Source: Candidatus Krumholzibacteriia bacterium
Lineage (GTDB): Bacteria; Krumholzibacteriota; Krumholzibacteriia; WVZY01; JAKEHA01
Length of the DNA: 32,453 nucleotides
Direction: 5' to 3'
Assembly (NCBI GenBank): GCA_035762505.1
Contig: DASTOO010000146.1
Span: 1 to 32,453, forward strand
The position numbers and the translations under genes were made by a program. Below are positions 828 to 31,200 of the stretch, one piece after another; the stretch's first letter is position 1, and the number at the start of each line of letters is the position of its first letter. The notes below the pieces were generated by a model, which saw only the letters and a list, made by a program, of their open reading frames with translations, was not told where the DNA came from and searched no databases.

Positions 828-3800
828 CTACTTCAGCAGCACGATCTTGCGGGTCTCACTGTACGACCCCGCGATCATCCGCACGAAGTACACCCCCGAC
901 GTCGCCGGCCGCCCCGCGTCGTCCGCACCGTTCCACACCGCCTGGTACCCACCCGCCGGCTGCGAGTCGTCCACCAGCCGCCGCACCAGCGATCCCCGAA
1001 CGTCGTAGATCGCGATCCGCACCTGCTCCGACTTGAGCAGCGTGTACGCCACCGTCGTCTGCGGGTTGAACGGATTCGGGTGGATCGACGACAAAGCCGT
1101 CGCCTTCGGAGCGTCCGTCACTTCCGGAACGTCCAGCGGCGGCGTGATGTCGAGCCACACGCCCGGCATCTCCACCGGTGTGCCCAGCGCGAAGATGTTG
1201 CCCACCAGGTAGTCCACGCCCGAGCGCGTCGTGTAGTGGATCCCCAGAGGCCCGTCCCCGCGCTCCCGCGTCAGGCTCGAACCCGACTCGCTCAGATCCA
1301 GCGACGTACTCGCGCCCACCAGAACGTCTACCGCCTCCGTCCGGTAGAACAACGCCAGGTCCACATGCCCGTCCGCGTTCACGTCCACCACCCGCGTCTC
1401 CGCCGGCCGGATCACTCCCGCCGTGTTGCCAAGATAGATCCGCGACGTCTCCAGCTCGGCCGCGTCCACCGCGTCCGTCGTTGGGATGACCACCGCGAAC
1501 GTCTCCGACGCCCCCGTGAACGTCTTCCCGTCCAGGCTGAACCCCGTCGACGCCAGTGCCGCACTCCCCTGGTCGTGCGGCACCCGCACGCACACCGTGT
1601 CGTACGCCACGTTCCCCGACATGTCCATCGCCTGGTAGTAGATCGTGTACTTCCGCCCGTCCTCCCCACCCATCCGCTCCGAGCGCAGCTCGATGCACTC
1701 GTCGGCCGTGCCCAACACGTCGCCCTGGATGTCATCGGTCGTGTGGCCGTCGCCCAGGTCGTTCTCCGGCTCGTCCGACACCGCACCGAACAGAACCCAC
1801 GTGGGATCCGGGTCGCAGATGTCCGTCACCGTCACCGTGGCACACACCGTCGCCAGCTTGTGGTTCGGCGGCCACAGAACGTCCCGGTCCAGCACCACGT
1901 CGATCTCCGGCGGCGTCGTGTCCTCCACCGTCACCGTCGCCGTGCACTCCGTCGTGAGCCCCGCGTCGTCCGTCGCCGTGAACGTCACCGTCGTCTCCCC
2001 CAGCGGGAAGCAATCCGGCGCGTCGTTGGTGATCGCCACGTCGTCGTCGCACACATCCGTCGCCGACACGCCGTCAAAGAACGGAATGAGCAGCGTGTCA
2101 TCCTCCGCCACCCCGCAGTGGCTCGAGCACTCCACCACAATGTCGGCCGGGCACACGATGACGGGGGGGGTGGTGTCGACGATCGTCACGTCGGCCGTGC
2201 ACTGGTCGGAACCCCCGAGCTCGTCCGTCGCGGTGAACGTGACGGTCGTGGTGCCCTCGTCGAAGAAGGACGGGGCATCGTGCGTGATCGTGATCGTGCC
2301 GCAACCGCCCGACGCCGAAGCGCCGGCGAGAAACGCCACGATGGCCGGATCGGTGGCCGGCGTCCCGCCGTGCTGCGAGCACTCGACCGAGATATCCCCC
2401 GGGCAGGTGATCGCAACCGCGGCCGGCGCATTGGCCTCGCGCCCGAACCACGTGAAGTGCGGCTCGGCGGCGGCGCCGCCTCCGCCTCCGCGCAGAACAT
2501 GCGCGCTCGCCACCCAGGTGTGGCCGAAGGGATCGTTGCGCCGCGCCGTGTAGTAATCGCCCCACCTGTTGTTGTCCGGGCCGTCATCGCCCTGCGATAC
2601 GAAGTAGCTCTCGAGCGGAGCGATCACATCCCCGTTGTAGTCGTCGGCCAGCCACGCGGACACCGACGGATACGGCACCGAATTGCCGCCGCCGCCGAGG
2701 CCGATCACGCCGCCGAGGTCCCCGTTGTCGTTGGGGTGGACGGCCGGGTACGCCCAGGCGAAGTCGTCGTTCCAGATCTGGCCCTGGTCGGCCAGGCCCA
2801 GGCCGCCCTCGTTGAATACCGCATAGCGCACGTTCGGCCAGGCGAACCCGTCGCCCTGGGCGGAGCCCCACATGAAGCCGACGCGGCCGGCCGCGACCCA
2901 CGCGGTGAGGATGTCGTTGAAGTCGCGCGCCACCCAGTCCGTGCCGTCCGGACTCGGCGCCGAGGAACCGGTGAAGTACTGATCGACGTCACGGTCGACG
3001 GAGGCGAGCGCGCCCGCCTCGGTCCAGCTGAAGATGCGCAGCGTGTTGTCGTCCACCTGCGTGCCGACGTACATCGTGCCCGCCGCTCCGTGCGTGCAGC
3101 GGACGTTGGCCAGCGAGGAGGCGAAGCTCGCGCCCGAGGCCGTCGCCGCGTTGGCGAGGTCGTCCAGGTCGAGCCGGATCACGCGCGCGCGGTCGCCGGT
3201 CGTGCTGCCCGTCCCGAAGTTCGTCGTGATGTACAGGAAATTGTCGCTGGCCGACAGGTCGGGGAAATCGAAGTTGTTGCTGGTCGCGTAACCCAGATCC
3301 TGCGGAGAGATGTCATACCACCACCAGTCGGCGAGGTTGGTGGTCGGGTTGTCGGAGATTGCGAGACGCACGATGTTGTTGTTGCTGCCGTCGCGCGTGT
3401 ACTGCAGGTACCAGCAGAAGATCCCGCGGCTGGGCTCGTAGTACACCACCTGGTCGCAACAGAATCCGCCGGCGGCGGTTGGAAAGAACGTGGCGGGATT
3501 CACGAACGTGAAGGTCTGGCCGCCATCGTTGGATATCGAACCATACCAGTTGCCGGTGTACACGACGTTGCTGCACGACATTCCGAGACTCGGCTCGTTG
3601 GTCGACGAGGTCGAGTTGTTGGTGAAGACGTCGGTCATCGTCGTGGTCCGGAAGAACGTGAAGTCCCCCGGCGCGCGCATCGTGCCCGGCGCCGCCGGCA
3701 GGTCCGCGCGCGCGGTCGTTTGCGGTGAGCGGTACAGCACGCCACCCGCGGTCGGGTCCTTCGCCAGCGTGTAGCGCGCCCGTCGCTCCTGGTAGAGGAC

Positions 3801-27029: not shown

Positions 27030-27512
27030 ATGGCCACACCAGTGATGACGTCCCAAGAGCTCGCTTCATACTTCAGAGACCCTCTTTGCATCTTCGACCT
27101 GAAGGCGACGACCAAGCGCGACGCGCTGGCCGAGCTGGTCGAAGCGGTGTGCGCCGATCGTGACATCCGGGACCGTGGCCTGATTCTCGAAATGCTGCTC
27201 AACCGCGAAAGCCTGGGCAGCACCGCCATCGGCAAAGGCGTCGCGTTTCCGCACGGCCGCACGCTCGCGGTGCGCGAGCTCTCCATCGCCTTCGGGCGCT
27301 CCGTTTCCGGCGTCGACTTCGATTCCATCGACAAGCAGCCGACACACGTGTTCTTCCTCATCATCGCCCCCCCGCAGGACCGCGATAATCTGTACCTGCA
27401 GGTTCTCGGCCGCGTCGTCGACCTCATCAAGGACGATGCCGCGCGCGGGCGCATCATGGGCGCATCGAGCGTCGGAGAACTGAAATCCATCGTCGAAGGG
27501 CAGGGCTTGTGA
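27030..27512 (+). CDS. ptsN: PTS EIIA type-2 domain protein (PtsN / EIIA-Ntr-like)
   Basis: In-frame C-terminal part of track ORF 26520..27512, starting at ATG 27030. LNRESLGSTAIGKGVAFPHGR (phospho-His context) and HVFFLIIAP. About 160 aa, typical of a stand-alone EIIA-Ntr. Confidence 0.8.
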   Translation: MATPVMTSQELASYFRDPLCIFDLKATTKRDALAELVEAVCADRDIRDRGLILEMLLNRESLGSTAIGKGVAFPHGRTLAVRELSIAFGRSVSGVDFDSIDKQPTHVFFLIIAPPQDRDNLYLQVLGRVVDLIKDDAARGRIMGASSVGELKSIVEGQGL

Positions 27513-27868
27513 GCGATCTTCCGGCAAAAAAGCAGGACCAGGCGCGACTCCTGGTCGCACTACAGGACATCGACCACATGATCAAGGAAGCGGAGGACAC
27601 CAAGACCTCCGCGAAGTTTCAGGAAATGGGCTTTCCGCTCGACGGAATCCTCGAGTTGAAGAAGGCCCGCGAAGAAATCGCCGCAAACGTCAAACCCCAG
27701 CTCCTCAACCGGTATCAGCGCGTCTCGAAGAACTACGAACGCTCGGTCGTTCCCGTGGTCGGCGAGTTGTGCACGGGCTGCTTCGCCAAGGTGCCGACGT
27801 CCTTCCGCTACGAGAAGAACGCCGTCGTGGCCTGCGAGAACTGCGGCCGCATTCTCTACTTCACGTAG
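27509..27868 (+). CDS. Short C4 zinc-ribbon protein of the DUF164/COG1579 (HP0958-like) type
   Basis: The GTG start overlaps the ptsN-like TGA (GTGA). Coiled-coil-like N-terminus, then VVPVVGELCTGCFAKVP....VVACENCGRILYF, matching the C..C...C..CGRILY ending I associate with this family. Confidence 0.8.
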   Translation: MSDLPAKKQDQARLLVALQDIDHMIKEAEDTKTSAKFQEMGFPLDGILELKKAREEIAANVKPQLLNRYQRVSKNYERSVVPVVGELCTGCFAKVPTSFRYEKNAVVACENCGRILYFT

Positions 27869-27907
27869 TCTCTCACTATACGTGTGGCCGCGCGGCAGTT
27901 GTCCGTG

Positions 27908-28008
27908 GCAGCGGTGTGCGGTCTGCGCAACGTCCTCGCGTGAACGACGAAGTGGCCGGCAAGTCCCAGCATTTGCTGCGGATTGTTGCTCAGACCGCAC
28001 ACCGCTGC
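27908..28008. repeat. Long inverted repeat forming a ~100-nt hairpin (function unknown; ncRNA or regulatory candidate)
   Basis: 18-bp perfect inverted repeat: GCAGCGGTGTGCGGTCTG (27908-27925) pairs with CAGACCGCACACCGCTGC (27991-28008). After one mismatch it extends by 5-6 more pairs (27927-32 with 27984-89). Confidence 0.6.
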
Positions 28009-28129
28009 TCCCGGGCGCCGTTCCGCGCGGGTGGCGGTCAGCGGGCGCCCGTGCGGGCGAGCCATTTATCGCGAAGGCGGAAACTGGCGAGACCGCGACG
28101 GGCTGCTGACCGACAGGACCCGCGCGGCA

Positions 28130-28169
28130 ATCAACCCGGCTGGTAGAGTGAAACGTGATCAACCGGGCT
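28130..28169 (+). promoter_or_regulatory. Direct repeat pair abutting the -35 of the EBP promoter (operator candidate)
   Basis: ATCAACCCGGCT (28130-41) and ATCAACCGGGCT (28158-69) share 11 of 12 bases and start 28 nt apart. The second copy ends at the first T of the TTGCTT -35 hexamer. Confidence 0.3.
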
Positions 28170-28196
28170 TGCTTTTCGGCCGTACTCTGGTAAAAT
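28169..28196 (+). promoter_or_regulatory. Sigma-70-type promoter with extended -10 for the enhancer-binding protein gene
   Basis: TTGCTT (28169-74), a 16-nt spacer ending in TGg, then TAAAAT (28191-96), in the only AT-rich patch of the spacer. The leader to ATG 28277 is about 70 nt. Confidence 0.5.
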
Positions 28197-28276
28197 AATT
28201 TTACTTTTCGTCCGCAAGGTATTGTTTCTTGCCCGTCTTGCCCGCTTGCCGGGGCCATACGGACGTGGGAGCGGCC

Positions 28277-31200
28277 ATGGAGTCTTCCGTTCGAACCTTC
28301 CGTCGCAATCTCGAGCCCATCGAGGAGGAGCGGGTTGCGGGCGCCTGGCGCGTGGCCGGGCACGTCGACCTGGTCAGCGAGCGCAGGTTCCTCGTGGCCT
28401 GGGCGGCGACCGACGCCGCCGGAAGAACCGACGCGAACGTGCTCACCTTTCGGTGTGACGCCGCCATGGCGATCGCGCCGGATGCTTGTCTCCCCGCGCT
28501 CGACATCACCACCGGCAATGGCCGCGCCGAGATTCTCACCTCCTTCGCCCGGCGGCTGGATGACAACGAGTGGTCGAACGGTGACATCGAGCGCGCGCTG
28601 CTCTCCCTGATCGATACCCTGGATCGCCTAGACGCCCACGCGTTCCACGCCGTGCATCTCAACGCCGATCTCGTCGGGCTCGACGAGACGAGTGCGCTCG
28701 TCGTTTTCCCGGCCGCGTACGCGTTTCCGCCGGATGCCGCCGACCCGGCGCGCGCCGGGCTGGATGCGAGGGCGATCTCACGCGCGGCGCATGTGCATAC
28801 CCTCGCGAGCGTGGCGAAGACGCTGGCGCCGCACGCCACGGGCGCGTTCGCGGACCGGCTGCGCAGGCTCGTCGCCGCCATCGCGGCGGGCTCGGTCGCG
28901 GGCGCGGCCCAGGCACGAACGTTACTCGCCGCCGAGACGAACGCCGCCCCGACCCCGGCGGCGCCCGCGCGCAAGCGGGACGACATCCCTTTCGACACGG
29001 CCGGCGCCCTGCGCGCGATCGCGGAGTCGAAGCCGGTGGAGGTCGCGGGACCCGCCGGCAGCGGCCGCACGGCCGTGCTCGAACGCTTCGCTGCGGAAGC
29101 ACGGCGAGCCGGCATCGACCCGCACTGGCTGGACGAGTGGGAGATCCCGGGCACCCCGCGCAAGCGCGGCGCCGGCCGCGAGGCGGGGCGCGGTACGGTG
29201 TGGATCGTCGACGACGCGGACGAGCGCCCGCTCCTGCATGCGTTCGTGCTGGACCACGCCGCCGAACTGGAGCGGCGGCCCGGCGCGGGGCTCGTGATCG
29301 CCACGCGGTCCGACGACCGGCCCAGCGCCTTCATGGCGCTCCTGCGCTCGCGCAGCCCGCACGGCGTGTTCACCGCGACTCTCCCGCCCGCGCGCAGCGA
29401 CGACCCGCGCGCCGCCGCGCTGGACACGCTGGAACCGGACGCGCGCCAGGCGCTCGAGCTGGTCGCGGTGGCCGATTGTCCGCTGCCCATCGACGTGGTG
29501 CTCTCGGTGTATCCGGGCACGGACCGGGCGGTGCACCGGCACATCTTCGCCCTGGCCGGCGCCGACCTCGTCGCCATCGAGTCGCGTCGTCTCGCCGCCG
29601 GCAGCGCGACCCTCCTCGTCTCCGTTCCCAGCGCGTCGCTGCGCCGCCTGATCCGCGACCGCATTCCGGAATCGCGCCGGCGCAACCTGCACCGCACCAT
29701 CGCGCGCATCGCCGACGAACGCGGCTCGTTCGCCCCCATGTTCGTTTACCAGCATCTCCTGGGCGCCGGCGAAGGACGCGACGCCGCTGCGCGCGCGGCG
29801 GCCTTCGTCCGCGAGGCGACGCGCCCGCAGCGCGCGCCATTCATCGAGAGCATCGTGCGCGACGTGATCGAGAGCGGCCTCGACCGCAGCCTCGCCTACG
29901 GCGACCGCATGACGCTCCTCGTCCGCGTCGGCGACGATCTGCTCGCCCGCGGCAGGCAGAAGGAGGCCGAAGCGCTCCTCGTCCGCGCCCGCGCCATCCG
30001 CGCCAGCGGCGACGACGTCCGCGCCAAAGCCCCGCTCGCGGGCGAGGCGATGCGGCTCCTGGCCGACGCGTGGGCCGCGCGCGGGCAGCTGCGCGAGGCG
30101 CTCGAGCTGCTCGAGGATACGCGCGAGGATATTGCGCCCTACCTGAGTCTCGCGGAGCAGGCCCGGCTGCTGAACGACATCGGCTGGTTCCAGTACCGCC
30201 TCGGCGACTATTCGAGTTGCGTGGACTCGTGCAAGTTCACGATCAACACGCTGAACCCGAACGAACACCCGCTGGTGGTCGCCCAGGCGCTGAACCTGAT
30301 GGGCGTCATCGCCTTCAACACGAGCCGTTACGACGAGGCGGTTTCTTACTACGAGCAGAGCGCGTTCCTGCGCGAGCGCGAGAAAGACCTCAACGCGCTC
30401 GCCGGCTCCTACAACAACCTGGCGCTGGCGTACCAGTCCAAGGGCGAATACGACAAGGCGCTCGGCTATCTCCACAAGAGCATCGAGATCAAGAGCCGCC
30501 AGAACAACGAAGCGGGCATCGCGGGCGGCTACCTGAACCTCGCGTTCCTCTACCTGGAGGTGCACAACTTCGACGAGGCGGAGCGGCGTTGCCGCGAGAG
30601 CCTGCGCATCAGCTCCGAGCTGGGACTCGCGCAGCTCATCGCCGAGAACCTCAACACCCTCGGCGACATCGTGTTCGCGCGCGGCCGCCTGGACGACGCC
30701 GAGCGCTACTACCGCGATTCCCTCGGCAACGCGCGGCGGCTTTCCACCGTGAACGAGGAGATGGGCGCGCAGAAGCGCCTCGCCAAGCTGTACATCCGCA
30801 AGGGCCGTCCCGAGGACGCGCGTGCCGCCATCGACGAGGCCTCGCGTCTCGCCGCCCAGATCGGATCGAAGTACGAGCAGGCGCAGACCGAGGAGATCTA
30901 CGGCGACCTGAGCGTCTCGGAGGGCGTGCACGGCGCGGCACTGGATCATTTCGAGAAGGCCGCGACGGCGTACGCGACCCTCTCCAAGCTCCGCCTCGCG
31001 GCGGCGTCCCTGGCCAAGGCGGGGATCGCGCACGCGAAGAACAGCAACCCGCTCGACGCGAAACGATACCTGGACCGCGCGCAGGACCTCATGAAGTCGC
31101 AGATCGGTCACGAGATTCCCGAAGAGATCGTGACCCTGCAGCAGACTCTGCGCGAGAGCCCGCTGCCCACCGCGGTGTCGGGCACGGCGTCGCAGAAGCT

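Follow-up and report, generated by a model that had tools for sequence, protein, structure and literature searches.

What is the densely structured DNA between a C4 zinc-ribbon gene and a sigma-54 activator gene in a Candidatus Krumholzibacteriia genome? The stretch under study covers positions 27869-28168 of the window, which is the whole piece of 32,453 nucleotides that was analysed, and begins directly after the stop codon of the zinc-ribbon gene. This gene (27509..27868 on the + strand in the ORF list) codes for 119 amino acids and ends with TAG at 27866-27868. The activator (EBP) gene is very large and has its ATG at 28277. A sequence-only reading had proposed an independent structured RNA on either strand, an RNA derived from the 3' end of the ptsN/zinc-ribbon operon or an enhancer-like protein-binding region. 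The present analysis favours a different answer: with a probability of about 0.75, two unrelated non-autonomous hairpin repeats of the REP/REPIN/MITE kind, here called A and B, were inserted at this site in this lineage only.

Structure of the spacer

The pairings first noticed by eye were recovered. The inverted repeat connects 27908-27931 with 27985-28008 over 24 nt with 96% complementarity. The outer of the two nested helices pairs CCGCGCGGGT (28023-28032) with ACCCGCGCGG (28118-28127) at 10/10 positions, and the inner one pairs 28032-28042 with 28105-28115 (11 nt, 91%). The palindrome CCGCGCGG is present three times, at 27888, 28023 and 28120. Folded as RNA, the + strand of the 300 nt reaches a minimum free energy of -167.5 kcal/mol, versus -137.7 +/- 5.5 kcal/mol for 200 dinucleotide shuffles, none of which folded as well (z -5.43). 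The z-score of the minus strand was -6.26. The comparison with shuffled controls, a check suggested in the sequence-only reading, thus found the stretch far more stable on both strands, and its structure is real, beyond chance. The fold of the whole stretch is closed by a pairing of 27887-27895 with 28120-28128.

The stretch is non-coding, as had been proposed. The ORFs crossing it had no Pfam match, and one of them runs antisense to the zinc-ribbon gene. Rfam 15 gave no match at gathering score in the whole window. For the stretch itself, a search at E <= 10 gave only generic long-hairpin matches to plant miRNA precursor models, far below threshold, in agreement with the earlier failure to recognise a known RNA family. 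The sequence-only reading was also right in not taking the stretch for the activator gene's leader.

Two dispersed repeats at one site

The source genome, a 2.9-Mb MAG of 478 contigs and 87% completeness, was searched for further copies. Positions 28014-28128 recur on three other contigs (C292, C415 and C296) at 92-97% identity, and weaker or fragmentary copies lie on about a dozen further contigs, several of them at contig ends. Positions 27886-28009 recur on C263 and C133 with approximately 78% identity. Because each unit occurs elsewhere in the genome alone and between unrelated flanks, the block consists of two elements. BLAST, nhmmer and covariance models together located B on at least 15 other contigs and A on four others of this genome.

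Comparison with relatives points to an insertion. Zinc-ribbon orthologues with 75-90% amino acid identity were found in 14 Krumholzibacteriia/'Latescibacteria' MAGs, and in 12 of the 14 orthologous loci read the same activator gene follows the zinc-ribbon gene. From the zinc-ribbon stop codon to a promoter-like block, 10 of the 14 spacers measure only about 20-65 nt, versus 300 nt here; the conservation in homologous spacers to be expected of a locus-specific RNA is missing. The extra DNA, about 260 nt, corresponds to the two adjacent dispersed repeats and starts 18 nt past the stop codon. Covariance models of A and B had no match in any of 18 orthologous loci from related Candidatus Krumholzibacteriia. 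An assembly chimera does not explain the join, because synteny is conserved on both sides. Two relatives carry other, unrelated GC-rich hairpins in the same spacer, which suggests that the spot just past the stop codon is a favoured landing place.

No direct repeat that could be a target-site duplication flanked any of about 40 copies, and the exact empty site is undefinable in the strongly diverged intergenic DNA of the relatives. Mobility is deduced from presence or absence and from patchy distribution instead of being seen directly, because neither a target duplication nor a precise empty-site junction can be defined.

The insertion left the promoter-like block of the activator gene intact. 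This block (28169..28200, + strand, recognised by conservation) begins about 39 nt 3' of the insertion and consists of a -35-like TTGCTT (28169-74), a 16-nt spacer and an extended -10 element, TGgTAAAAT (28188-96). The arrangement CTTG..TTTC-N-TCTGGTAAAATAATTTTAC precedes the activator gene in 12 of 14 orthologous loci. A sigma-70 scan leaves 28169-28200 uncalled because the -35 element matches at only 3/6 positions; conservation and the extended -10 element suggest a promoter function. Between the insertion and this block lies a residual spacer (28131..28168, + strand) with a small local hairpin, the last of the fold. Direct repeats ATCAACCCGGCT (28130-41) and ATCAACCGGGCT (28158-69) surround GGTAGAGTGAAACGTG here, and the relatives read have no alignable counterpart of 28131-28168.

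Element A

Element A is an imperfect hairpin of 107 nt (27905-28011, + strand, covariance model R1). Its outer stem is the inverted repeat 27908-27931 / 27985-28008. The stem leads to two inner motifs conserved between copies, CGTCCTCGCG at 27931-27940 and CTGCGGATTG at 27976-27985, which enclose a centre (27941-27975) that differs between copies. Model R1 scored 118.7 bits on the + strand versus 49.2 bits on the - strand. It found five copies in the source genome, and six other genomes of the genus have one or a few each. Among the 17 genomes of the genus, 7 carry the motif pair CGTCCTCGCR-N18-48-CTGCGGATTG; the 191 other genomes of the phylum lack it, and so does the reversed control. A is a hairpin repeat family confined to this genus. 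Global pattern matches outside Krumholzibacteriia were rejected as chance, with flanks that are not complementary.

The stem of A is maintained by compensatory changes in 24 of 33 pairs; the outer stem has changed almost wholly and is still paired. In the model-fitted alignment, which includes some reverse-strand rows, 89.9% of cells pair versus 30-50% with a slid partner, and none of 500 shuffles reached the observed value. A count in gapless register gave 65.8% paired, a figure too crude owing to bulges, and the model-fitted count was used. The ten copies of genome G004 have nearly identical arms and inner motifs. Their centres, about 22-27 nt long, vary in sequence, yet the length between the motifs stays constant to within 1-2 nt. 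The centre was considered as a guide or as captured neighbouring DNA. Twenty centres were compared by BLAST with their own flanks and the whole genome and gave only chance-level 12-15-mers; the 17/22 similarity of the centre at this locus to 27817-27838 is taken as chance because the 20 centres match nothing beyond chance. A longer autonomous A element left no sign: the 3' motif CTGCGGATTG occurs 14 times versus about 6 expected, and 5 of the 14 are known copies.

A 5' extension, GGCCGCGCGGCAGTTGTCCGTG (27886..27907, + strand), is shared with the C263 copy, for which the BLAST alignment spans A positions 1-124 at 78%. It contributes to the closing stem of the global fold, carries the first CCGCGCGG, and its positions 27887-27906 can pair with 28109-28128 at the 3' end of B (75% complementary). 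By eye, the extension resembles the inverted right arm of B. On contig C3, a copy of A (1831-1937) adjoins a partial inverted B arm (1795-1826). A ribosomal-protein operon contains one A-like copy, between rpsN and rpsH.

Element B

Element B is a hairpin of about 110 nt in three tiers (28020-28130, + strand; 112.4 bits with covariance model R2). Stem 1 pairs 28023-28032 with 28118-28127, and stem 2 pairs 28035-43 with 28104-12. An invariant asymmetric internal loop lies within CGGGTGGC (28028-35) and GACAGGACCCG (28112-22). The upper part has a GGC bulge, a GCCCG/CGGGC helix and an apical hairpin at about 28056-28088. According to the alignments, B starts with GTTCCGCGCGG, or with N-CGGGTGGC in other lineages, and terminates with ...CCCGCGCGGCC. 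The invariant motifs are partly unpaired: GGGTGGC on the 5' side and GACAGGACCC on the 3' side, plus GGGCGCCC and GGGCTG. The arms of both elements form terminal inverted repeats, asymmetric, of 10 + 9 bp in B and 24 bp in A. The predicted hairpins of A and B each have -72 kcal/mol.

The source genome has eight model matches to B, and nhmmer extends this to about 17 copies and fragments. A short form of about 55 nt without the apical module was found on two contigs (C194 and C180). Model R2 matched 24 of 36 genomes in the order, distributed over 12 of 17 genera, with at least 29 matches in a closed genome (G001) and 26 and 22 in two others (G015 and G033). It had no match in 5 of the 17 genomes of the source genus. 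Tandem copies exist in relatives (G006, contig C52). Almost all copies in the order are intergenic, mostly about 0-60 nt from a stop codon, and sense to the upstream gene at about 3:1, a tally based on gene calls from a crude GC3 filter.

Covariation was assessed on 26 copies of B from four genomes. Compensatory changes affect 14 of 31 pairs, and 96.7% of cells pair versus 30-40% when the partner is slid. Double changes occupy 95 cells versus 30 in shuffles, with none of 500 shuffles reaching the observed value; copies within one genome are related, and these counts are not independent events. The covariation sits among paralogous copies across genomes, which identifies a dispersed repeat family. 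It is strong among these dispersed copies; the orthologous spacers hold neither element.

B-type elements in other phyla

B is not restricted to this phylum. The exact pattern CGGGTGGC-N50-80-GACAGGACCCG was found at 120 loci or more from many phyla in a species-representative collection. The matches listed include Solirubrobacterales/Thermoleophilia (most), Acidobacteriota, Nitrospira, Planctomycetales, Chloroflexia, proteobacterial MAGs, Omnitrophota and CPR bacteria. In a hairpin test, 113 of 134 pattern matches had at least 6/8 pairs immediately inside the motifs, and 73 had 8/8. Viral contigs served as an empirical null, with 1 of 8 pattern matches at 6/8 pairs or better. Four genomes from other phyla contained 7-17 exact copies each, and the reversed controls none. 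Model R2, built only from Krumholzibacteriia copies, gave 40-51 bits on copies from Acidobacteriota, Nitrospira, Conexibacter, Microgenomates and Solirubrobacterales.

The constant feature of the superfamily is the asymmetric internal loop in a GC helix, 5' CGGG-UGG-C ... G-ACAGGA-CCCG 3'. The apical parts vary by lineage while this loop at the foot stays constant. The Solirubrobacterales form presumably has a terminal gcgggtcctgtcgc. In loci of low G+C content, the element itself stays at 66-72% G+C. At a Microgenomates (CPR) locus with 36% G+C, a B-type element starts 2 nt past a stop codon. Other members lie within long ORFs, namely L134 (415 codons, 38% G+C) and L190 (801 codons). Rfam had no match on 23 superfamily loci (18 + 5) from other phyla, a BLAST search for carriage by plasmids or phages gave no match, and no paper was found in the literature on the B motif or on such repeats in these taxa.

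The folded strand and the search for a partner

Mismatches indicate which form of B is selected. Among 115 distinct hairpins, the eight foot-proximal pairs of stem 2 contain 87 G·T and 11 A·C mismatches; since subfamilies have common ancestors, these counts do not represent independent events. A duplex or cruciform would treat both strands alike, so that the form under selection is one particular strand in its folded state, whether RNA or single-stranded DNA. Conserved G·U pairs were also seen in the B alignment (columns 25:88 and 53:62). An RNA function would likewise agree with the sense bias and the G·U-type asymmetry.

The Y1 transposase of REPINs, RAYT (Y1_Tnp, PF01797), was absent from all 17 genomes of the genus, while control genomes gave the expected signal. 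Within the order, 2 of 36 genomes encode PF01797, both without B. It was also absent from four B carriers of other phyla, three of them closed chromosomes, and altogether from every B-bearing genome tested, including four closed chromosomes. None of the 36 genomes of the order encodes the PD-(D/E)XK family PF13366. Paired copies enclose ordinary metabolic and housekeeping genes with no candidate partner, and no neighbour gene recurs across 80 loci. A limited, non-exhaustive search did not find a longer autonomous element with the same ends and a transposase.

The invariant loop of B may be the docking site of a trans-acting protein. Such a factor would copy or maintain the elements on single-stranded nucleic acid. 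Tentatively, and at odds clearly below even, B may be a strand-specific hairpin superfamily of at least eight bacterial phyla, without a description that we could find, serviced by a putative RAYT-independent protein acting on single-stranded DNA or RNA. If true, B would represent a second 'REPIN-like' system, independent of the first and with an enzyme of its own. Neisseria offers a precedent for the kind of partner envisaged. Its NTS repeats number in the hundreds and are recognised as single-stranded DNA by the small GIY-YIG nuclease Ssn (PMC11893778). For B this is an analogy only, and no partner gene was identified here.

Comparison with known repeats

The closest known kind for both elements is REP/REPIN, with BIME-like clustering. 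REPINs of Pseudomonas and Enterobacteria combine conserved arms with a spacer whose sequence varies while length and pairing are preserved (Bertels & Rainey 2011, PMC3116915). Like them, A and B are short, intergenic, multi-copy hairpin repeats with compensatory changes, a less conserved central spacer and no evident target duplication; for B, populations persist across the whole order. Unlike REPINs, the B-bearing genomes tested lack RAYT, and the alignments of B show no 5' tetranucleotide of the GTAG type at the foot of the hairpin. REP sequences are lineage-specific, whereas the asymmetric internal loop of B is common to several phyla. The abutting of different repeat units recalls the BIMEs of E. 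coli. The units here differ from those of BIMEs in size (about 110 nt versus about 35 nt) and are unrelated in sequence, and no IHF or gyrase motifs were identified.

MITEs and similar repeats, such as Correia in Neisseria, ERIC in Enterobacteria and RUP/BOX in Streptococcus, share with A and B the absence of genes, a size of about 100-150 nt and inverted arms. They too lie close to the ends of genes, are frequently co-transcribed with them and vary in presence from one relative to another. Neither a target-site duplication nor a parent insertion sequence was found here, in contrast to these repeats, and the arms of B are unequal in every copy, with UGG on one side and ACAGGA on the other. Rickettsia palindromic elements (RPE) resemble the B superfamily in the members from other phyla that lie inside long ORFs. 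They differ from A and B, whose copies are intergenic in this genome and genus, and there is no sequence relation.

Other candidates were rejected. The R''/R' boxes of integron attC sites (RYYYAAC ... GTTRRRY) are not at the ends, and the copies are scattered singly on different contigs. No intrinsic terminator was called on the + strand between 27400 and 28400, and no T-run follows A (CCCGGGCGCC) or B (AATCAACCC). Resemblance to K-turns, attC, CsrA sites and SRP-Alu was considered, and the consensus positions do not fit.

Alternative explanations

A and B could be functional multi-copy RNA modules of 3' untranslated and intergenic regions, kept for their function and not as selfish DNA. They would act as terminators without a U-tract, as stabilisers of 3' ends, or as protein docking sites or sponges through the ACAGGA / UGG loop of B or GCGGAUUGU of A. 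Strand-specific folding with 87 G·T versus 11 A·C mismatches and conserved G·U pairs in B agrees with this, although single-stranded DNA hairpins also tolerate G·T. The sense score of model R1 (118.7 versus 49.2 bits), the unpaired motifs conserved across phyla, the A-like copy between rpsN and rpsH and the position of copies just past stop codons, about 3:1 in sense, point in the same direction. However, about one quarter of the copies are antisense to the only gene able to transcribe them, and the hairpins here have no U-tract. The distribution is patchy within the genus, with B missing from 5 and A from 10 of 17 genomes; copy numbers range from 0 to at least 29, some copies in other phyla lie within ORFs, and the orthologous genes of relatives manage without the elements. 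Functional modules are thus an unlikely explanation, which still deserves some weight.

The dsDNA and single-RNA readings are far less probable. The block might regulate the activator promoter as a protein-binding region of double-stranded DNA, be it an enhancer-like site, a cruciform or a site for nucleoid proteins. It is close to the conserved promoter-like block 28169-28200 and holds the palindromic CCGCGCGG sites, and REP/BIME clusters of E. coli bind IHF and gyrase. In relatives, however, the promoter block is present with no insertion beside it, the same elements adjoin unrelated genes elsewhere, and the strong asymmetry of G·T over A·C argues for single-strand folding. An enhancer-like region belonging to this neighbourhood, as had been considered, is very unlikely where the spacers of relatives lack A and B. 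The least probable reading takes the 290 nt as one independent, locus-specific non-coding RNA, on either strand, of the ptsN / zinc-ribbon / activator neighbourhood. The very stable global fold (z -5.4 and -6.3) of a non-coding stretch speaks for it. Against it, the stretch splits cleanly into two units that occur alone between different flanks, neither unit is in the same spacer of 18 relatives that keep the flanking genes, and Rfam has no match. The independent RNA of the sequence-only reading has to be given up, with A and B models matching none of the orthologous loci.

The insertion of two repeats remains the preferred reading. A and B would lie side by side as a small BIME-like mosaic cluster between the zinc-ribbon stop codon and the activator promoter, and at this locus they would be passengers. 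They are probably transcribed along with the ptsN/zinc-ribbon mRNA, as a hairpin tail at its 3' end. Such a tail could block read-through or protect the 3' end. The RNA on the 3' end of the ptsN/zinc-ribbon transcript that had been suggested is possible in this form, as a passive consequence of the insertion.

Implications

The part most worth attention is the cross-phylum superfamily without RAYT; at this locus, A and B would be ordinary repeat insertions rather than a regulatory RNA. No regulatory RNA is conserved in the ptsN / zinc-ribbon / activator neighbourhood, and the structured block would be a recent passenger. To our knowledge, a RAYT transposase accompanies all the REP/REPIN-type repeats that are understood so far. 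The same asymmetric loop, from Krumholzibacteriota to Actinomycetota, Nitrospirota and CPR bacteria with 36% G+C, with no RAYT in the carriers tested, points to an unrecognised partner or mobilisation route. The exact B motif makes such a partner searchable by phylogenetic profiling. The elements also have practical consequences. They can be mistaken for non-coding RNA genes, and in other phyla they can be translated inside proteins. They also break MAG assemblies, as seen from the several copies at contig ends.

Putative promoter and apparent insertion site of the activator spacer

The giant sigma-54 activator gene appears to be under a sigma-70-type promoter, because a block with a weak -35 and an extended -10, CTTG..TTTC-N-TCTGGTAAAATAATTTTAC, is kept 5' of the gene in 12 of 14 relatives. 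In the window, this promoter-like block covers 28169-28200, where the consensus scan did not call it. In the orthologous loci of the relatives (L041-L054), it lies ~30-70 nt past the zinc-ribbon stop codon. The spacer just past this stop codon seems to be a repeated insertion site.

The orthologous spacers of two relatives (L054:1857-2110 and L051:1857-1965) hold different GC-rich hairpin inserts in the same spacer. The L054 insert has CGGGTGGC and a variant 3' motif and gave no score with R2, the covariance model of element B built from Krumholzibacteriia copies. In loci L049 (genome G011) and L052 (genome G007), a gene other than the activator follows the zinc-ribbon gene. The synteny is broken there, and the linkage of ptsN/zinc-ribbon genes to the activator is therefore not universal within the genus.

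Arrangement of elements A and B

A second A-B junction is present in the genome of the window (G000:C3:1795-1937), with a relative orientation that differs from the one in the window. Element A (1831-1937, minus strand) adjoins a partial B left arm (1795-1826, plus strand). B copies also form head-to-tail tandem pairs in two genomes (G006:C52:783-1010 and G028:C112:3438-3611), ~8 nt apart or with a 4-nt overlap. Partial B copies in the genome of the window retained the 3' arm in ~6 cases (contigs C392, C359, C147, C220, C437 and C99) and the 5' arm in ~3 (C396, C61 and C3). This excess of 3' arms could result from 5' truncation on insertion or from asymmetric deletion. At locus L152, a solo GACAGGACCCGTTTTC is located directly 3' of a full element.

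Strand counts were tallied by hand for the closed 3.2-Mb chromosome of the relative G001, covering the 26 listed of 29 R2 matches: 20 B copies are on the minus strand versus 6 on the plus strand. Between 0 and 1.93 Mb, 16 of the 17 tallied copies are on the minus strand. A weaker A-like hairpin of 30 bits (L066:547-646, on contig C132 of genome G009) is located between the ribosomal protein genes rpsN and rpsH in sense orientation, within the expected spc operon transcript.

Superfamily members in other hosts

The members of the superfamily, B-type hairpins with an invariant asymmetric loop, have 66-72% G+C even in low-G+C hosts; one is present in a Microgenomates locus of 36% G+C (L194:5034-5116). 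Two members are located on the sense strand within long open reading frames, one of 415 codons (L134:2837-2924) and one of 801 codons (L190:1272-1368).
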